Source of the DNA: a virus
Taxonomy: Duplodnaviria > Heunggongvirae > Uroviricota > Caudoviricetes
Reading direction: 5' to 3' (one strand)
DNA length: 10,302 nucleotides
Virus record (IMG/VR): IMGVR_UViG_2718217859_000003
Part shown: piece after piece, positions 839-10,302 of the stretch
Numbering within the stretch: position 1 is the stretch's first letter
How the letters are laid out: the number at the start of each line of letters is the position of its first letter
The notes under the pieces: model-generated
Told to the model about the DNA's origin: nothing
Seen by the model: only the letters and a program-made list of their open reading frames with translations
Database searches by the model: none
Translations under genes and position numbers: made by a program

Positions 839-1120
839 TTACCGCCGTAACCGCTCCGGCTTCTTCCACTGGTACGTTATTTTGGCTTTTTCCCTGTACG
901 TCTGTATCCGGCGACGGTAGGCCAGCATTTCAAGAACGCGGATCCGTATGTCGCGCATATCCGCATCATTAAGCTGGATACCATCACGGTGCATCACCTC
1001 AGCAACCACACGAACATAATTTTCTGCGGTCACGCTGTCCGGCTGCGTGGCCTGTTCGTCAGCCTGCTGGTTGATTCCGGCGACGCGGCGGATTAATCGC
1101 AGTAGTTCGGTTTCTGTCAT
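839..1120 (-). CDS. Hypothetical protein, 93 aa
   Basis: ATG at 1120 with a GGGGG SD-like run upstream on the minus strand. It sits immediately downstream of repeat copy A. No recognisable motif. Confidence 0.5.
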   Translation of the reverse strand: MTETELLRLIRRVAGINQQADEQATQPDSVTAENYVRVVAEVMHRDGIQLNDADMRDIRIRVLEMLAYRRRIQTYREKAKITYQWKKPERLRR

Positions 1121-1158: not shown

Positions 1159-1375
1159 TTTTTTGTAAAGAATCTGTCACGCTAAAAGATGTCGAACAAA
1201 AAACAACCTTCTCCATCATCTTTTTTGCATCGATTACATTAAAAACAACAGGTTACATACATGATGATGATGACGATAAAATCACAAAAATGCGCTTTTT
1301 TCCGCGCCCGCCCGCCCCGTGTTCATACCCACCCCACCAGGAGGACCCGCAAAAAAGGCGGCTGGTGCCGCCTTG
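1159..1375. repeat. Direct repeat copy A (~220 bp, diverged) flanking the capsid module
   Basis: Aligns block-wise with 3698-3914: TTTTTGTAAA, GAACAAAAAACAACCT, an (ATG)n versus (GTG)n triplet tract, ATAAAATCA-AAAAATGCGC, the identical 20-mer CCGCGCCCGCCCGCCCCGTG (1302-1321), then CCCACC, CCAGGAG and an A-run plus hairpin. Confidence 0.8.
1351..1372 (-). terminator. Rho-independent terminator downstream of the protease-capsid gene
   Basis: On the minus strand: GGCGGC-ACCA-GCCGCC followed by TTTTTT, 7 nt after the stop of the 1379-3268 gene. Confidence 0.65.
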
Positions 1376-1378
1376 TTG

Positions 1379-3268
1379 TCATAGTGAATCGGTACCGCCT
1401 GATTTGACCATACCGCGATAATCCAGAGCGGCCACACCAGCATCAATACGGACTTTCCAGGCCACACCGTCAACGATGAAACCTTCCTGCTGTTCAAGGT
1501 AAGGCTCGTCATTGCCATCAAGATAAGCCACCTCGATTGTGTCCGTTCCCTGTGCGGAAAGCATGTACCATTGTTTTTCGCTGATATCATCAAGGCGGGG
1601 ATCGACGATAATATCCAGTAGTTTGTGATACGGGTTAAAGATCCCGCTGTTTTTATCTGCCCCGAAAGGTGCGGTTGAGTTAATCATCTGCAACGCGCGA
1701 TCTTCCAGTGCTGCCGGAACTAAAAGGAATTTAGGCGCAATATTCAGCACTTCGCCATTTTTGTCCTTCTGTGTGCGCATCAGGTGACGTGCTGCACTAA
1801 GTCCCGGTGTTGTCAGTCCTGCTTCAATCAGGTTGCTGTGTTTTTTGTCAAACAGCGCTATTCCATCAGAAAGTTTTACGTTGCCTGTAAGCACCAGATT
1901 AACCAGATTTCCCACCGTTCTTGATGCTGCACGGCCCATAGCCATTGGCACCGTTGATAACTGATCAAGGTCATCATTGATTATCGCCTGGCGGGTAATG
2001 CTGAAAATATTCCCGTAAGTAGCCAGCGCGATGGGTTCACCGCGATCGCTGGTGGTGATGTATTTATATTCTGCCCCTTCCGGCACTTTGTTTAACGTAG
2101 AGAAACCATTCAGACCAACGCGGCGGGCTTCACGAAAGTTTGAAAGGGAACCTTTTTTCGTCCACTGGCGGAATGTTTCGCCGCTGTGCTCCCAGCCTGC
2201 AAGCACTGATTTTTCAGCACCACCAGCAAGGATATCGGTAAAATCGCTGCTGCTGTGGTTGAATGCCGCGTTTACTATCTGCGAGCGTGTTCCGTAGCTG
2301 CCCGTGCTTATACCACGATGGGTTAATGATGCCTGTGCCATATCGAAAAGGCTCATCATGGCGTAAGGATTACCGCGTTCGGCCCGTTCGTGACCAAGAC
2401 GCGCATTAAGCCCCTGGCGCATTGCATCGCCGGTTATGTTGCCGTTATCCGTGTACGCGTAGTAAAGATTTGCGGGGGTGGTTTTATTTGTTGGCGTTGA
2501 TTCTTTACCCATAGCGAGTAAAAGGCGTTCGCGTGCATTCTCAACGCTACATTCTGAATCAGCAAGACAACTTATAGCCAGGTCGTTATATCTTCCGTTG
2601 AACGTGCCAAACAATTCACGGATGCCGTTAAGTCGTTCCTGTTCGCCACTGCCAGTTTTCTGGCTGATCATGCTTTTAATTTTTTCCGGCATATTTGAAA
2701 AATCTCCGATTCGTTTTGATTCAATTCGGGCCATTGCTGTAATCGCGGGTATAACCTCATCTGCGAAGCCGTTAGCCTTACACTCATTGCCATCCATCCA
2801 GGTTTCCGCCTCCATCATGGCGGTGATTTCCTGTTTGCTCCTGCCCGTTCTTCCGGCGTAGGTTTCAGCCATCGTGTCGCCCAGCTTGTCCATCAGGTCA
2901 GCAAAGCGGCGAACGTCGCCCGACACTCCGGCAGTAACACCACGGGGGGCATGTATCATCATCATTGCGTTTTCAGGCATAACGATGTGATCGCCACACA
3001 TGGCAATAAACGAGGCCATAGAAGCCGCCATGCCTTCAATGTGTACAATTTTCTTTGCCGGATGATTTTTCAGGGCGTTATAGATAGCCAGCCCTTCAAA
3101 GATGTCGCCACCAGGTGAATGGATGCGAAGATGGATTTCAGACGCATTACCACACGCGTTGATCTCGTCAGTAAGTGCCGATGCTTTTACACCGTACCCG
3201 CCGATCTCGTCATAAATGCGCACATAGACAACATCTGCCATAGCCTTAATGGAAAACCATGTTTTCAT
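1379..3268 (-). CDS. Prohead protease (ClpP-like serine protease) fused to an HK97-fold major capsid protein, single 629-aa polypeptide
   Basis: Strong SD (AGGAG, 8 nt upstream of the ATG at 3268). N-terminal third carries ClpP-type motifs: IHSPGGDIFEGLAIYNAL, GMAASMASF (Ser) and MMMIHAP (His). The C-terminal segment FSITRQAIINDDLDQLS resembles the HK97 gp5 stretch ASRQVMDDAPMLQS as I recall it. Confidence 0.8.
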   Translation of the reverse strand: MKTWFSIKAMADVVYVRIYDEIGGYGVKASALTDEINACGNASEIHLRIHSPGGDIFEGLAIYNALKNHPAKKIVHIEGMAASMASFIAMCGDHIVMPENAMMMIHAPRGVTAGVSGDVRRFADLMDKLGDTMAETYAGRTGRSKQEITAMMEAETWMDGNECKANGFADEVIPAITAMARIESKRIGDFSNMPEKIKSMISQKTGSGEQERLNGIRELFGTFNGRYNDLAISCLADSECSVENARERLLLAMGKESTPTNKTTPANLYYAYTDNGNITGDAMRQGLNARLGHERAERGNPYAMMSLFDMAQASLTHRGISTGSYGTRSQIVNAAFNHSSSDFTDILAGGAEKSVLAGWEHSGETFRQWTKKGSLSNFREARRVGLNGFSTLNKVPEGAEYKYITTSDRGEPIALATYGNIFSITRQAIINDDLDQLSTVPMAMGRAASRTVGNLVNLVLTGNVKLSDGIALFDKKHSNLIEAGLTTPGLSAARHLMRTQKDKNGEVLNIAPKFLLVPAALEDRALQMINSTAPFGADKNSGIFNPYHKLLDIIVDPRLDDISEKQWYMLSAQGTDTIEVAYLDGNDEPYLEQQEGFIVDGVAWKVRIDAGVAALDYRGMVKSGGTDSL

Positions 3269-3459
3269 AGCCAGGCTCCTAACGTTGCCCTGTACCAGTA
3301 TTCAACCGCGCTGCGTGTGATTTGTCCTTTCGTGGGTACCGGCATACCCGGGTGATTGTCTTTGATGAACTGCTGATAGCGTTCGATCTTCTCCATAGTT
3401 CCGGCGTCTATGTGTACCGTGGCACTTTTATCCGGCTTTCTGGTGTTGTTCTCTGGCAT
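3265..3459 (-). CDS. Hypothetical small protein (64 aa from ATG at 3459; 75 aa if ATG at 3492), translationally coupled to the protease-capsid gene
   Basis: GGAGG SD 8 nt upstream of the ATG at 3459. Its stop overlaps the capsid start as ATGA at 3265-3268. Confidence 0.5.
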   Translation of the reverse strand: MPENNTRKPDKSATVHIDAGTMEKIERYQQFIKDNHPGMPVPTKGQITRSAVEYWYRATLGAWL

Positions 3460-3541
3460 AAATCCGCCTCCGTTTTGATTAACGGGCATCATTATTGATC
3501 GATAAAAGTAATAGATAAATCATTTTCTACCTGAAAATTAG

Positions 3542-3547
3542 ATTATA
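3542..3547 (-). promoter_or_regulatory. Candidate -10 element (TATAAT on minus strand) for the capsid operon, no good -35
   Basis: Perfect TATAAT on the minus strand in the AT-rich region upstream of the small gene. The missing -35 would fit an activator-dependent promoter. Speculative. Confidence 0.25.
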
Positions 3548-3654
3548 TTTTTTCTGATTATTCTCAGAGAGGCAAAGCCATTGACGCATTTTTGCTATTG
3601 AAGCAATATTAAGACTCGTCATCCTGGCGATAAAAACTCCTTTGTCGTGTAAAA

Positions 3655-3691
3655 GCGCCTCCGGTAACAGCAATCGAGGGCGCTTTTTTTT
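3655..3691 (+). terminator. Rho-independent terminator-like hairpin on the plus strand
   Basis: GCGCCTCCG, an 11-nt loop, then CGAGGGCGC (one mismatch, one GU pair) followed by T8. No plus-strand gene lies upstream, so it may end a small RNA or act bidirectionally. Confidence 0.45.
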
Positions 3692-3697
3692 GCGCCT

Positions 3698-3914
3698 GTT
3701 TTTTTGTAAATGTTTTCGGGAACGCTCCAGTGATGAACAAAAAACAACCTGATTCGACACTAAAAATTTTTATTCCTCAATATATCAATAACTTATAGTG
3801 GTGGTGATGGTGCCATAAAAATCAAAAAATGCGCCTTTTTCCGCGCCCGCCCGCCCCGTGGACAGGCCCACCAAGCCAGGAGTACCTACAAAAAAGCCGG
3901 ATTGCTCCGGCTGT
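3698..3914. repeat. Direct repeat copy B (~220 bp, diverged) flanking the capsid module
   Basis: Same conserved blocks as copy A in the same order and orientation; identical 20-mer CCGCGCCCGCCCGCCCCGTG at 3841-3860. Confidence 0.8.
3890..3911 (-). terminator. Rho-independent terminator downstream of the 3931-4170 gene
   Basis: On the minus strand: GCCGGA-GCAA-TCCGGC followed by TTTTTT. It is positionally homologous to the hairpin in copy A but has a different stem sequence. Confidence 0.65.
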
Positions 3915-3930
3915 GTGCTCACTTCTTCGG

Positions 3931-4170
3931 TTATTCTCCAGCGCTTTTAACGTTGATGGTTGTAACCTGTTCCGCTTCGGCAATCTCCCGCTCTGTCAGC
4001 GTGGCAAAGTTTGCCGCCGTCGTGGTCATGAATGCGCTTATCAGTTCAGGATGTGCTTTCGCGTATCCTTCTCCCGCGTTGCGGTCGATGATTTTTATCG
4101 CCACCCTCAGCCAGTGTTCTGTCAAATCAAGGGCGTGAGATTGTGGTTTTTTTGCGTGCTTCGTTGTCAC
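3931..4170 (-). CDS. Hypothetical protein, 79 aa, GTG start
   Basis: GTG start with GAGGT SD about 7 nt upstream; lies between the iteron cluster and terminator B. No recognisable motif. Confidence 0.5.
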   Translation of the reverse strand: MTTKHAKKPQSHALDLTEHWLRVAIKIIDRNAGEGYAKAHPELISAFMTTTAANFATLTEREIAEAEQVTTINVKSAGE

Positions 4171-4214
4171 AGGCTTTACCTCACAGCAATAAAATAAAAT
4201 TTTTGCATTTTAAC

Positions 4215-4434
4215 CCTTCACCTGTTCACTTTTTGCGATTTTCCCTTTTTATTCATGATGTTAAGTGGTGAACAGTTTCACAAAAACTATTCACCAACTG
4301 TTCACCCTTAAAGCTCAATAAACAATCAAAAAGGTGAACAGTGAATAGTTTGGTGAACAGTTCATAAATAACTGCCCACCCTGTAATATACTGATATAAA
4401 AGACATTTATGACATGGTGAACAGTGGTGAACAG
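4215..4434. repeat. Iteron cluster: putative replication origin (P4 ori/crr-like) bound by the adjacent primase-helicase
   Basis: Six exact copies of the octamer TGTTCACC / GGTGAACA, as GGTGAACAG at 4267, 4333, 4352, 4416 and 4426 and inverted CTGTTCACC at 4298-4306. There is also an 8/9 copy at 4222-4229 and TTCACC half-sites. An AT-rich tract at 4361-4415 separates the tandem pair from the rest. Confidence 0.8.
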
Positions 4435-4447
4435 TTATTCCATAAGT

Positions 4448-6253
4448 TTAATTTTTGCTATCGTCATTAGTGACCGATACACATGATGGCATCCAGTCTT
4501 CTGATTCCTCCTTCAGTGTCACGTTTGAACGCAAACCGTGCTTCGTTTTCCGTTTCATATACTCCCTGCCATATTCCGCCATTGCCCCCGGAATATCTTT
4601 ACCGAAGCGCGTCAGTGTTACAGGCTTACCGAATCCGTGTGCCCTCATATATGCCAGATAGGCGTGATAAAGATACCTGCGCGGACTGAACGGAATAATT
4701 TCGGCATTACCCACTAACAGACCATCACACATTACCGACGACATGAGATAGCCGCAGAAGTCCACCAGCGAATCGCCCTCGCGTTTTATCACCAGAGCTT
4801 CTTCTGATTTCTGCTGCTCATACAGCAAGCGTTTAGCTTCGTCCTGGTCAGAAAAACGAGTAAGCAGGTGGCGAATCACAACCGCCAGCTCTCCTTCTAT
4901 TTTTTCTGCCAGCATGGAGTCGCGTTCGTTTTCCGGTACAACCTCCGAAAAATTGAATATCACCCGACGACGTGAGATCCCCCCGCTGCGGTCACTGAAT
5001 GACATGGCGTTATTGTTCACCGCCAGCACGACCGCCTGAATGCGTGTTGAGTAGGGGGCTTTATGCTTCGGGTCGATTGCCACCTTGTCACCGCCTGTAA
5101 TGGCCTTAATTCCTGCGCCATCACCAGCGTAGCGGGTCATATCCGGCATGATAATCAGCGAAAAGCCAACCACTAACGCGCGTTCCCTGGCATCTTCCAG
5201 CGCCTTCATGCTTGCCGATACCGTGTTGGCCTTACCCGCCAGCATGGTGCAAATCTCCGCCATTACGCTTTTACCGCTCCCACCCGGCCCCGTTACCTCA
5301 AGAAATAACTGCCAGTCGTATCGGTTCGCCAGCACCATGAATAACGCCGCCAGTACGCGATCCGCTTTACGGTCATTCTCTGCCACCGAACGGCGCAACC
5401 ATTTCCAGAAATTCGGCGCATGCGTTGCCAGCGTTTCCCCCTCTGCTGGCGGGCTGAACGGTAATTCACTGGCAATTAACAGCCAGTCGTTTTTGTCATG
5501 CTCCCGAAAATCGCCTGTCCGGGTATCAAAAACACCGTTACTGAATCCAATCAGGTTACGGGCGGTATTCCCCATTACGGGCAAACTTAACTTCATGGTA
5601 TCGACCGCCGATTTGATGGCGTTCTGCGAATAACTAATCTCCGCATCAATAAAAATCTGCGCCATAGCCCGCTGTAACTCTTTATCCTGTACCGGCTCCC
5701 ATACAACGCCGTTGTAGTGGTGAACGGTGTCAGAGTCCGCATTGATTGCCAGTTCACCGCCATAACGTGCCAGGAGAACTTCGCCGCGCTGGCTTGCTCC
5801 CATCTGGTTAAGAGCCAGTGGTGCGGCGTTGTCTTCTGTTTTTTTCTTAACAGGAAGCTGAATAACCAGACCATCAGAAAGATTCTGGCGCTCACGGGCC
5901 AGATATTCGCGCCAGTTTTCCACCTCCTGACCGTGCATTCCCTCAGGGTAATATCTCGCATCCCGTACACCTGCCGCCGCCAGCTTTTGCCCGATGGCAT
6001 TAATATTTGACGGCTTGATGTGGCCTGCCTTGTACAGCCGGACATAATAGCGACCATCGTCGATAATTTTCAGGTCTGCCAGTTCATCAAGCTGGCTGTC
6101 TCCCAGCCATACAGGCGGGACGTTATCGCCAGCAAGTCGCCCGTCCTGTTCCTGCCATTGTTTCGCGTGCGCCCAGGCATCACTACCCGCAAAAATAATG
6201 ACTTCGGTCATTTTGTCGTGCGGCTGTTTTTTTAAGTTTGGTGCCAGTTTCAT
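4448..6253 (-). CDS. Replicative primase-helicase, P4 alpha-like (phage/plasmid primase with P-loop NTPase and C-terminal DNA-binding region)
   Basis: 601-aa ORF with SD-like AGGGG upstream. Walker A motif VTGPGGSGKSV in the middle; the N-terminal region fits a primase domain. Its position directly upstream of the cognate iterons matches P4 alpha and PICI pri-rep genes. Confidence 0.85.
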   Translation of the reverse strand: MKLAPNLKKQPHDKMTEVIIFAGSDAWAHAKQWQEQDGRLAGDNVPPVWLGDSQLDELADLKIIDDGRYYVRLYKAGHIKPSNINAIGQKLAAAGVRDARYYPEGMHGQEVENWREYLARERQNLSDGLVIQLPVKKKTEDNAAPLALNQMGASQRGEVLLARYGGELAINADSDTVHHYNGVVWEPVQDKELQRAMAQIFIDAEISYSQNAIKSAVDTMKLSLPVMGNTARNLIGFSNGVFDTRTGDFREHDKNDWLLIASELPFSPPAEGETLATHAPNFWKWLRRSVAENDRKADRVLAALFMVLANRYDWQLFLEVTGPGGSGKSVMAEICTMLAGKANTVSASMKALEDARERALVVGFSLIIMPDMTRYAGDGAGIKAITGGDKVAIDPKHKAPYSTRIQAVVLAVNNNAMSFSDRSGGISRRRVIFNFSEVVPENERDSMLAEKIEGELAVVIRHLLTRFSDQDEAKRLLYEQQKSEEALVIKREGDSLVDFCGYLMSSVMCDGLLVGNAEIIPFSPRRYLYHAYLAYMRAHGFGKPVTLTRFGKDIPGAMAEYGREYMKRKTKHGLRSNVTLKEESEDWMPSCVSVTNDDSKN

Positions 6254-7579: not shown

Positions 7580-7772
7580 GTCAACAGTTATTAAGCGCGA
7601 TAAAAAACAAAAAGGCACAGGAAAGACCCCACCGTTCCATATGCGTATAGTTCCTGAATTGAAGGAGCAGTTTGATAACGAAGCCAGTAACGATGGAGTA
7701 AGTCTTGCCAACTGGCTTAAAGAGTTGGGGCGCGCCGAACTAAAGCGACGCGGCATTGAACCTAAAGGCTGA
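7578..7772 (+). CDS. Ribbon-helix-helix (Arc/CopG-like) DNA-binding protein, 64 aa
   Basis: ATG at 7578 with an AGGTG SD. The segment FHMRIVPELKEQFDNEAS...SLANWLKELGRAEL fits a strand-helix-helix pattern. The track's longer version starts at a TTG inside the control region and is unlikely. Confidence 0.55.
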   Translation: MSTVIKRDKKQKGTGKTPPFHMRIVPELKEQFDNEASNDGVSLANWLKELGRAELKRRGIEPKG

Positions 7773-8339: not shown

Positions 8340-8546
8340 TTACGCAGCCGTTCCGCGCGCTTCTTCCTCGCGCTCTTTCAGCCAGGCCAGCACTTCATCT
8401 TCATACCAGCCAACACGACGCAGACCGATTTTGAAGCCTTTCGGAAATTTTCCGGCGTTGATCATGTCCTGTAGCGAACTGTCTGCCTTGATGCGCAGAA
8501 TATTTTTTACTTCCTGACGGGTAAGAATTTTTCTGATTGTTTCCAC
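8340..8546 (-). CDS. alpA: AlpA-family phage transcriptional regulator / excisionase-like HTH protein
   Basis: 68 aa, GTG start with AGGT SD. The pattern FPKGFKIGLRRVGWYEDEVLAWL matches the AlpA core I recall. Small regulator near the integrase, as in P4-like elements and Gram-negative PICIs. Confidence 0.8.
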   Translation of the reverse strand: METIRKILTRQEVKNILRIKADSSLQDMINAGKFPKGFKIGLRRVGWYEDEVLAWLKEREEEARGTAA

Positions 8547-8615
8547 TATGTTTTACCTCGTTAATCCGGCGTATTCCGGTGATAAATACGGTAAAACAGG
8601 GCAGGGCGGGAAAAA

Positions 8616-8651
8616 CAGTACCCACCGTTTTAAAACGGTACCCACTGTTTT
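8616..8651. promoter_or_regulatory. Two tandem 20-bp repeats AAAACRGTACCCACYGTTTT upstream of alpA
   Basis: cAGTACCCACcGTTTT at 8616-8631 and cGGTACCCACtGTTTT at 8636-8651, 20 bp centre to centre, with the palindrome CCGTTTTAAAACGG (8625-8638) bridging them. Confidence 0.5.
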
Positions 8652-8681
8652 TTATCTTATTGATTACGCTTTTCTTTCTGC

Positions 8682-9060: not shown

Positions 9061-10302
9061 TTACACGGCACGGATACCCCTTTTACCACTGGCTATGGTC
9101 ACTCCGGTTGCTGCGGCCTCTACAAATTCCCCCCACCAGCGCATAAGCACCACGCGCTTTTCCAGGTAGTTACTTCGGTTATATGCTCGCCTTACCTCGT
9201 TCGTGTCCACGTGTGCGAGTGCGGCCTCGATTACGTCCGGCTCGAATCCTTCCTCGTTCGCTGCTGTGCTGAATATGGCGCGTAATCCATGAGACACCAG
9301 CACGCCAGCGAATCCCATTCGCCGCAATGCTGCGTTGGCGGTCTGGCTGTTCATAGGCTGCCGTGGGTCTTTCAGGCTAGGGAAAACGTGCTCGCGGTGG
9401 TGGCTGATTGGCTTCATGGCCTCCAGTACCGCCATAGCCTGACTACAAAGCGGGATAACGTGATCACGCCGCATCTTCATGCGTCCGGCGGGGATCGTCC
9501 ATTGTTGCGCGTCCATGTCGATTTCTTCCCAGCGTGCTGACGATGCTTCAACCGGACGGGTTACAGTCAGTAGCTGCCATTCAATCAGTAATCTGGTCTG
9601 CCGTTCTGTTGCTGATACGGATAAAGCCTGCATAAGCTCCGGCAACTGTTCGGGGCGGATTGTTGGCATATGTTTTTTTACAGGGGAGGGGAACGCCTTA
9701 CGCACATTCATAGCCGGATTGGCATCAATCAGCCCACTGTTGGCGGCGTAATCCATTACCTCATTAACGCGCTGTAAAACCCGCTTGAGTGTTTCCAGGT
9801 TGCCGCGCTCCTTGATGGGTGTAAGCACCTCAACGAACCTTCGGGCAGTGAGGGTATCTATTGGCGTGTTGCCGATGAACGGGAATACATATTTATCCAG
9901 CGAACGCCAGATGTCTTTAATCGTGTTGGGGGCCAGATTCTGGCTGATTTTCACCTGGTACCATGCCGCCGCCACATTTTCGAACGTGTTCCCTTGTCTT
10001 CGGGCCTCTGCCTCTCGTTTTTTCTTCTCATGGTCCTGCGGGTCAGTTCCGGCACTGATTAACGTCCTGTACTCGCTACGGCGTTTTCTGGCATCAGCCA
10101 GGGAAACATCTTCAAGAGATCCAAAACTCAGCAATATTCTTTTTTTGTCCGATGGTCGGTAGTAGGAAAATCGCCAGAGTTTTGATCCGGACGGTTTTAC
10201 CAGGAGAAAAAGCCCACCGCCGTCCTGTAGGGTGTACTCCTTTTGCGCTGGTCTGGCTGCTTTGATCTGCACTGTGGTTAATGGGGGTGTTTTTCTCGCC
10301 AT
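9061..10302 (-). CDS. int: Tyrosine site-specific integrase, P4-type (phage integrase family)
   Basis: 413 aa; the start codon sits exactly at the window edge. N-terminal arm-binding-like region (GGGLFLLVKPSGSKLWRFSYY), C-terminal catalytic signatures HGLRAIFST and a tyrosine in RRAYNRSNYLEKR. Confidence 0.93.
   Translation of the reverse strand: MARKTPPLTTVQIKAARPAQKEYTLQDGGGLFLLVKPSGSKLWRFSYYRPSDKKRILLSFGSLEDVSLADARKRRSEYRTLISAGTDPQDHEKKKREAEARRQGNTFENVAAAWYQVKISQNLAPNTIKDIWRSLDKYVFPFIGNTPIDTLTARRFVEVLTPIKERGNLETLKRVLQRVNEVMDYAANSGLIDANPAMNVRKAFPSPVKKHMPTIRPEQLPELMQALSVSATERQTRLLIEWQLLTVTRPVEASSARWEEIDMDAQQWTIPAGRMKMRRDHVIPLCSQAMAVLEAMKPISHHREHVFPSLKDPRQPMNSQTANAALRRMGFAGVLVSHGLRAIFSTAANEEGFEPDVIEAALAHVDTNEVRRAYNRSNYLEKRVVLMRWWGEFVEAAATGVTIASGKRGIRAV

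Follow-up and report, generated by a model that had tools for sequence, protein, structure and literature searches.

The DNA analysed here is the 10,302-nt IMG/VR virus record IMGVR_UViG_2718217859_000003, a member of the Caudoviricetes, and this whole stretch is called the window. In this study, we examined two direct repeats of about 220 bp that bracket the capsid gene in the window. The window matches the chromosome of Escherichia coli 08-00022 (NZ_CP013662.1) at 100%, in an island of about 11 kb that adjoins tRNA-Pro between yejM and yejO. Nearly all genes of the island are directed leftward. The general features of a gram-negative phage-inducible chromosomal island (PICI) are present, namely an integrase gene, an AlpA-like regulator, a primase with iterons, unidirectional genes, a length of about 11 kb (expected 10-20 kb), and a place next to tRNA-Pro (expected, a specific att site). 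The island is collinear with EcCICFT073, and the common blocks show 81-92% nucleotide identity. Judged by its sequence, the window is an EcCICFT073-like PICI, a satellite of lambdoid phages.

As shown in Table 1, a fusion of a prohead protease and a major capsid protein lies between the two repeats, which we refer to as copy A (1159-1375) and copy B (3698-3914). The product of the 93-amino-acid (aa) gene that follows copy A has 83% aa identity to that of the last gene of EcCICFT073, which there follows the packaging site cos2. Neither a small terminase gene (terS) nor a gene for the packaging adaptor Rpp was found in the window. Searches by tblastn with RppA, three DUF1441 TerS proteins, a Nu1-like TerS and lambda Nu1 all gave E > 0.03 (best for RppA, E 1.9), and no such gene emerged from Pfam and PHROGs searches or from PDB sequence searches of the 93-, 75- and 142-aa open reading frames (ORFs). 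Rpp is not universal in the EcCICFT073-like family; relatives carry a DUF1441 or Nu1-like terS instead, or neither. An Rfam scan of the whole window at gathering thresholds gave zero matches.

Table 1. Genes, cos elements and hairpins of the window, in order of position.
Feature	Position	Strand	Details
PerC gene	1-372	leftward	
93-aa gene, first after copy A, no assigned function	839-1120	-	phrog_1561
Copy A, complete cos region from cosQ to the end of cosB, Sp15/VT1-Sakai class	1159-1348	-	aligns end to end with Sp15 cos
GGTTGTTTTTTGTTCGACATCTTT block of copy A, common block and class-specific R1-like end	1185-1208	-	
Inverted GATGATGG element of copy A, R2-like	1213-1220	-	GATGATG conserved in Sp15 and A-class islands, flanking spacers diverged
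R3-position element of copy A, CGTCATCATCATCATG	1260-1275	-	bp 43-58 from putative left end; identical in Sp15 and all A-class island sites; class-specific
cosN core of copy A, CACG GGGCGGGCGGGC GCGG	1302-1321	-	lambda ACG GGGCGGCGACCT CGCG at same place of alignment
cosQ heptamer of copy A, GGGTCCT	1342-1348	-	identical to lambda 48473-48479
Intrinsic terminator of capsid gene, AAGGCGGC-ACCA-GCCGCCUU and U run, directly 5' of copy A cosQ	1351-1374	-	-15.6 kcal/mol, z -2.1
ClpP-like prohead protease/major capsid fusion	1379-3268	-	Pfam Phage_capsid_4 8e-55, CLP_protease 3e-33; between both cos sites
75-aa gene, first after copy B, no assigned function	3265-3492	-	phrog_4934, E 1.8e-51
Second hairpin, T runs on both strands, directly after copy B, outside the repeat	3651-3697	.	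-15.4 kcal/mol, z -1.3, not separable from shuffled sequence
Copy B, 1720a-02/CP-1639/TW14359 class, cos region in which cosQ is altered	3698-3887	-	
GGTTGTTTTTTGTTCATCACTGG block of copy B	3727-3749	-	
AGTGTCGAAT element of copy B, R2-like position	3752-3761	-	kept in B-class phages and islands; differs from A at same columns
R3-position element of copy B, GGCACCATCACCACCAC	3798-3814	-	GGCACCATCACCACCA identical in 1720a-02, TW14359 and all B-class island sites; class-specific versus A
cosN core of copy B, here the same as in copy A	3841-3860	-	centre differs between sites in most related islands
Altered cosQ of copy B, AGGTACT for GGGTCCT	3881-3887	-	two changes
Intrinsic terminator of 79-aa gene, AGCCGGA-GCAA-UCCGGCU and U run, directly 5' of copy B	3890-3912	-	-14.8 kcal/mol, z -2.8
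D5-type primase gene	4448-6253	leftward	GGTGAACAG iterons after it
AlpA-like helix-turn-helix gene	8340-8546	-	
Integrase gene	9061-10302	leftward	

The two repeats are related over their full length

The first-pass annotation had described two copies of about 220 bp with ordered sequence blocks and an identical GC-rich 20-mer, each copy standing between the end of one gene and the start of the next on the minus strand. Its coordinates and description were correct, and the position of each copy between genes was confirmed. The ordered blocks aligned over the whole ~220 nt (MAFFT). The 20-mer, CCGCGCCCGCCCGCCCCGTG, is present exactly twice, at the cosN cores of Table 1, and none was expected from 200 shuffles with up to two mismatches allowed. 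A gapless core of 98 nt (1276-1373 versus 3815-3912) is 79% identical, and one identical stretch of 25 nt is shared in this island. Outside the core from cosQ to cosN, identity between the copies falls to only about 67% over the cosB side. Each copy is nearer to the cos of a different phage than to its partner, and copies A and B are therefore not recent duplicates of each other.

Copy A is homologous to the cos region of Sp15-type phages

The region around the GC box of copy A was compared with phage genomes. Positions 1270-1355 are 93-98% identical to Stx/VT1-Sakai-type phages, with a weaker match to mEp460, and the cosB side (1150-1285) shows 80-82% identity to the Stx/VT1-Sakai-type phages. 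The alignment with the cos of Sp15 begins at cosQ and stops less than 40 nt short of the following start codon. The match in VT1-Sakai (Sp15) sits between Rz and a 158-aa gene, and a lambda-A-like large terminase gene (terL) comes next. In the host chromosome record, the search counted three cos-like places. The 158-aa gene encodes a DUF1441 protein, the small terminase of Sp15-type phages. In mEp460, the match forms the last ~190 nt of the record and abuts the start of terS; the record starts at the terS start codon, and the match has the position of cos. Homologues of both copies have this location between lysis genes and terS in VT1-Sakai, 1720a-02, mEp460, and the prophages of O157 strains 9234 and TW14359. 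The terS expected after cos is absent in the island.

Read on the minus strand, copy A consists of the terminator, GCGGGTCCT, 21 nt, ACG GGGCGGGCGGGC GCGG, and an A/T-rich stretch that carries (CAT)4, an inverted GATGATG, and GGTTGTTTTTTGTTCGACATC. The cosQ heptamer stands 21 nt from the ACG preceding the cohesive end (20 nt in lambda), and it was intact at 43 of 43 phage sites examined. ACGGGGCGG is common to lambda and these cos sites. A 12-nt end analogous to that of lambda would be 1306-1317, the nick positions being placed by analogy. By our own count, two-fold symmetry of cosN extends to 6 of 16 positions here, compared to 10 of 16 in lambda (PMC9026076). The linear, virion-derived record mEp460_4F5 ends in ...GGTGGCCTG and starts with CCACGGGGCGGG, 5 nt before the nick predicted from lambda, a weak hint that the GC box may be the cut point. 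The R3-position element of copy A (Table 1) can be compared with R3 of lambda, which lies at bp 50-65 and is contacted by TerS at bp 55-63 (PMC9026076). Further along cosB, GGTTGTTTTTTGTTC is common to A, B, Sp15 and 1720a-02, and mEp460 has GATTGTTTTTTGTTC. The residues after GGTTGTTTTTTGTTC are class-specific, CGACATC in A and ATCACTG in B.

It had been remarked earlier, in a hedged aside, that the GC box loosely resembles cos cores. This likeness was correct, as the box is the cosN core of a complete cos region and both copies are homologous over their full length to phage cos DNA upstream of terS. A literature search for the cosN strings returned only papers on G-quadruplexes and unrelated subjects. 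Separately, about 120 nt of the cosB side stand twice in tandem within the last ~370 nt of mEp460_ev081 (LR597641.1), a duplication that is genuine or else arose in the assembly of the genome end.

Copy B belongs to a second cosB class that matches a different small terminase

Copy B is 90.5% identical over 168 nt to phages 1720a-02 and CP-1639. Its cosB side is about 94% identical over 114 nt to a prophage of O157:H7 TW14359, where it lies between a lysis gene and a DUF1441 terS. Identity on the cosB side was 82% for A versus Sp15 and 80% for B versus 1720a-02, compared to 64% for A versus 1720a-02, 66% for B versus Sp15, and 67% for A versus B. The phages of the two classes were then set against each other. 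Sp15 and 1720a-02 are nearly identical in TerL (99.7%), in the C-terminus of TerS (95%), and from cosQ to cosN (99%). Divergence is seen in cosB (66% identity) and in the N-terminal DNA-binding domain of TerS, whose first 80 residues are 60% identical. The class-specific columns fall on three elements, the first of which lies at bp ~43-60 from the putative end, the position of R3 in lambda. In the island copies, the R-like elements are identical to those of the phages while the spacers have diverged.

IMG/VR was scanned with a 48-nt pattern for each cosB class; the contigs counted are not phylogenetically independent. All 18 A-class sites with enough sequence were followed by a TerS with the A-type N-domain (98% versus 59%), and in 25 of 25 B-class phage sites the TerS that follows has the B-type N-domain (99% versus 61%). 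Another 30 B-class sites were followed by the 75-aa gene of the islands. There were zero exceptions to the pairing of cosB class and TerS class. These results suggest that the cosB elements match their cognate TerS, as would be expected of predicted binding elements at a fixed distance from cosN; this correspondence comes from comparison only.

The R3-position element was also compared among the window (1260-1275 and 3798-3814), the B sites of two related islands, one of them ETEC1716, and cos1 of EcCICFT073. It is triplet-periodic and changes by class, as (CAT)4, CACCATCACCACCAC or GGCGGCGGC, with ACCACCACCAC in EcCICFT073 cos1 (~7608-7621 of the compared stretch). With a shift of about 3 bp, the EcCICFT073 site, which is read by Rpp, is therefore similar to the B/mEp460 phage class.

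The paired sites recur in related islands at mosaic boundaries

In four islands of E. coli, the capsid cassette is preceded by a B-class site and followed by an A-class site; their three integration sites are tRNA-Pro, clpS/cspD, and the interior of a prophage terL. Among the IMG/VR islands with enough sequence, the B site was followed at 2.5 kb by an A-class site whose cosQ is intact in 18 of 18. The cosQ of the B site was altered in 18 of 30 islands and intact in the other 12, and no alteration occurred at the 43 phage sites. The cosN centre varies among islands and among phages, with seven variants in island B sites against one in B-class phages, while ACG and GCGCGG on either side of it did not vary at any site. 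By reading of the aligned pairs, the two sites agree in their centre in only 2 of 18 related islands. The identical 20-mer holds for this island and not as a general feature. A requirement for identical cosN at both sites, which would give matching cohesive ends, was rejected as a general rule since most related islands differ.

One close relative, in strain ERL06-2442 (NZ_CP032801.1; 9332-19750 of the compared stretch), is inserted in the terL of an Sp15-type prophage with an A-class cos. This is a natural pairing of satellite and helper, a helper-embedded PICI as in PMC10111431, and the A class is that of the cos of this one observed helper.

Among the four islands, the block made up of copy B, the 75-aa gene and the capsid gene is 94-98% identical, intergenic DNA included, compared to 77-92% in genes outside it. 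Conservation of copy B was considered as a sign of selection and rejected. It says nothing on selection, because the whole cassette, intergenic DNA as well, is equally conserved (96-98% among islands).

The late region varies among islands. It contains one of two types of protease-capsid fusion, a lambda E/D type, a pac-like terS with capsid, or a deletion. Strain 53 and ETEC1716 have two mEp460-type sites each, with differing R3-position motifs, and after the second site comes a DUF1441 terS that belongs to the island itself. Z0117EC0040 has three cos sites of two cosN types, an A-class site at the B position and lambda-type homologues of cos1 and cos2. At the B position, EcCICFT073 is without the ~195-nt cos cassette, a clean indel between two terminator-like hairpins (5208-5463 versus Z0117EC0040 9788-10204, compared stretches), and the cassette of Z0117EC0040 likewise lies between two such hairpins. 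ETEC1716 (9861-10761 of the compared stretch) has lost most of the capsid gene. It kept both cos copies and a 3' remnant of the capsid gene, which argues for an internal deletion rather than recombination from repeat to repeat.

The first-pass annotation had also proposed gain or loss of the module by recombination at the repeats and had suggested looking for islands without the region between them. The proposal was borne out in part: cos sites do stand at mosaic boundaries and the module differs among islands, but the sole loss of the capsid gene did not proceed through the repeats. A scan of species-representative genomes with the capsid fusion found only relatives at 62% identity or less, mostly head modules of prophages, and was uninformative on the repeats.

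Terminators open both copies, but promoters were not found in them

Both copies had been said to contain a hairpin with a stem, a 4-nt loop and a U run, and both fold as described. The terminator pattern scan listed only the hairpin of copy B; the folds of both are as required. The terminator of the capsid gene is also found before the A site in three related islands. That of the 79-aa gene is also present in EcCICFT073 at the equivalent place, with no cos after it. Just 5' of cosQ, lambda (48440-48472) and Sp15-type phages (~4085-4105 of the compared stretch) have an AT-rich palindrome, TGATAA-N-TTATCA, with a T run. Since the phages have this palindrome in that place, the terminators are the satellites' own. 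They are real but belong to the upstream genes.

No sigma-70-like promoter (-35/-10 with 16-18 nt spacing) was found on the minus strand at 1140-1400 or 3690-3920, in a scan that is blind to activator-dependent promoters. Late-promoter sites of the P2/P4 type (TGT-N12-ACA) were also sought by eye, and none had the right spacing. A perfect TATAAT with no recognisable -35, at 3546-3551 on the minus strand, is a candidate for an activator-dependent promoter that serves the capsid operon; it lies about 55 nt upstream of the 75-aa gene and beyond the repeat.

Other features of the island

At least six copies of GGTGAACAG(T) in both orientations occupy 4257-4440, directly after the primase on the gene strand, which is the expected place and form of the replication origin of the island. 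Three TG(T/C)AAATTT(A/G)CA palindromes at 726-745, 763-776 and 807-820 stand between a rightward 99-aa ORF (416-715) and the end of the 93-aa gene, and they look like operator sites for a regulator. Upstream of the AlpA-like gene, AAAACAGTACCCACCGTTTT and AAAACGGTACCCACTGTTTT form adjacent inverted copies of 20-21 nt (8611-8652) that may be a binding site for a regulator or for recombination directionality. The capsid fusion is 51% identical to the fusion of an Sp15-type prophage (3688-5667 of the compared stretch) with an A-class cos. This is the same relation as that of capsid homologues which resize helper capsids elsewhere, such as Ccm of SaPIbov5.

Discussion

We consider it highly probable that the window is an EcCICFT073-like PICI whose repeats are copies of helper-phage cos sites of two cosB classes, recognised directly by the helper terminase. 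As the island is without terS and rpp, the helper terminase would have to recognise the sites directly. Each site runs from the terminator of the upstream gene to cosQ, then after ~21 nt to a G-rich cosN where terminase would cut, and on through ~165 nt of cosB with R-like elements that TerS would bind. The helper terminase would bind and cut both sites with no adaptor. Copy A would be the initiation signal for helpers with the A-type TerS, and copy B for those with the B-type TerS. Since cosQ is often mutated in copy B, termination would be chiefly the task of copy A, and copy B would be used, if at all, only to start packaging. Two cos sites at a distance of 2.5 kb pose a difficulty for termination. 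Feiss and Siegele reportedly described in 1979 that terminase passes over cos until the head is full. Terminase is thought to skip cos sites until that point (PMC6092414), and termination in lambda needs cosQ.

The comparisons show the homology of the repeats, their positions, the two classes, the co-variation of cosB and TerS, and the recurrent pair of B and A. On the roles of the two copies, our judgement is more divided. That the island carries one initiation signal per helper specificity, which would widen the range of usable helpers, has about an equal chance of being right or wrong by the sequence comparison. Somewhat below this we place a 'two-key' satellite that has one start signal per terminase specificity with a shared cutting subunit, and whose upstream cosQ was disabled so that the genome is not chopped at cos sites 2.5 kb apart. 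The change of cosQ in the B sites of islands fits start-only use and also fits decay, and conservation favours neither of the two.

Several observations weigh against working roles for both copies. The cosQ of copy B carries two changes, as in 18 of 30 islands. Most islands have unlike cosN centres in A and B, a difference compatible both with a division of labour and with one site in decay. From copy B to the capsid gene, the block is young throughout, intergenic DNA that looks neutral included. Copy A, in turn, is only about 80% identical to phage DNA in cosB, though its R-like elements are intact. The second cos of EcCICFT073 is dispensable, and its deletion even raises lambda-mediated transfer (PMC6092414). 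The packaging roles in this island are read from sequence, and the nick positions follow lambda by analogy.

These observations bear on an alternative that is less likely but deserves weight, in which copy A packages and copy B is a passenger. Copy B would have been brought in from a phage or another satellite as part of the capsid cassette, which comprises cos, the 75-aa gene and the protease-capsid gene, and it would be non-functional or decaying. The young block with its less similar flanks, the mutated cosQ, the seven cosN centres of island B sites, and the dispensable cos2 of EcCICFT073 all agree with it. However, from cosN through the three R-like elements, copy B is about 94% identical to a live prophage class with all class-specific elements intact, and its changes are concentrated on the cosQ side. 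A perfect cosQ is kept in 12 of 30 island B sites. Moreover, islands with other capsid modules (Z0117EC0040 and strain 53) also have a cos cassette here, of a different class, which suggests repeated acquisition and not accident.

It is improbable that the repeats serve mainly as recombination substrates for loss or exchange of the capsid cassette. Such a role agrees with the mosaic boundaries at the cos positions, the differing late regions, and the 25-nt stretch identical in both copies here. However, the island that lost its capsid gene did so by internal deletion, and no hybrid single site with a B cosQ and an A cosB was found among the islands examined. The differing cosN centres of most islands also shorten the identical stretch. 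Recombination would explain the evolution of the locus, but not the phage-cos nature of the sequence. As for the reusable cassette of terminator and promoter proposed in the first-pass annotation, which would end one leftward unit and start the next, we give it hardly any credence: a convincing terminator opens both copies and each precedes the first gene of a new unit, but neither holds a sigma-70-like promoter on the minus strand, about 190 of the ~220 nt are homologous to cos DNA that in phages lies within the late transcript and is no promoter region, the terminators are the very part not shared with phages, and the TATAAT lies outside the repeat.

The reading of both repeats as helper-type cos sites can be compared with known systems. 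When EcCICFT073 was searched by the same pattern, the sites located were those published as cos1, which is direct and precedes rppA, and cos2, which is inverted and precedes the 93-aa gene; both were shown by experiment to confer phage-mediated transfer (Fillol-Salom et al. 2018, PMC6092414; 2019, PMC6739421). Both islands have two cos sites in the late region, each after a terminator and with helper-like cosQ (altered here in copy B) and cosN, and one of them directly before the 93-aa last gene. In EcCICFT073, however, the sites are inverted and flank rppA, cosN is of the lambda type (GGGCGGCGACCT), and cosB is unlike that of any phage and is read by Rpp bound to the helper TerS. Here, the sites are direct repeats that flank the capsid gene, cosN is of the Sp15 type, both cosB sides are phage-like and of two classes, and there is no rpp or terS.

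The architecture also follows lambda cos. GGGTCCT (AGGTACT in copy B) is separated by 20-21 nt from ACG, a G-rich 12-mer comes next, and an R3-position element lies at bp ~43-60; in the phage relatives, the site likewise stands between lysis genes and terS. The two classes differ in cosB and the DNA-binding domain of TerS while the rest of the terminase is common, as in the pair of lambda and phage 21 (cosB and the N-terminal domain of Nu1). Unlike in lambda, TerS is a DUF1441 protein and not Pfam Phage_Nu1, cosN differs and is less symmetric, and the triplet-periodic R elements are unrelated to those of lambda.

In the helper-embedded PICI 11capE, a 258-bp segment at the cos position is 90% identical to that of the helper (PMC10111431). 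It is a terS-less PICI with a near copy of the helper cos, and a close relative of the present island itself lies inside a helper terL. One shared segment was reported there, whereas two of different classes are found here. P4 (with the cos of P2), SaPIbov5 and SaPIbov4 also carry a helper cos with no terminase gene and are packaged via the helper's own signal, although their sequences are unrelated and their hosts and helper families are others. SaPIbov4 is cited as having two putative cos sites (PMC6092414), and SaPIbov5 also encodes a capsid homologue. Capsid genes are the commonest late gene in such islands (PMC10111431). Two cos sites in a PICI and a helper-like segment at the cos of a terS-less PICI were thus already known. 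What is added here, by sequence comparison, is that both sites are phage-like, direct, and of two defined classes, without an adaptor protein.

The cos sites decide which phages move an island together with its virulence or defence genes. EcCICFT073 needs its own adaptor, Rpp, whereas the present island appears simply to copy the signals of its helpers, one per class. Through the clean co-variation of cosB class and the DNA-binding domain of TerS, the DUF1441 terminases of prophages of the Shiga-toxin type gain a natural specificity pair comparable to that of lambda and 21. If each copy does serve a different helper, the helper range of an island would be readable from its sequence. This would also explain why islands have more than one cos, such as the three in one relative, where lambda-type and Sp15-type sites occur in the same island.

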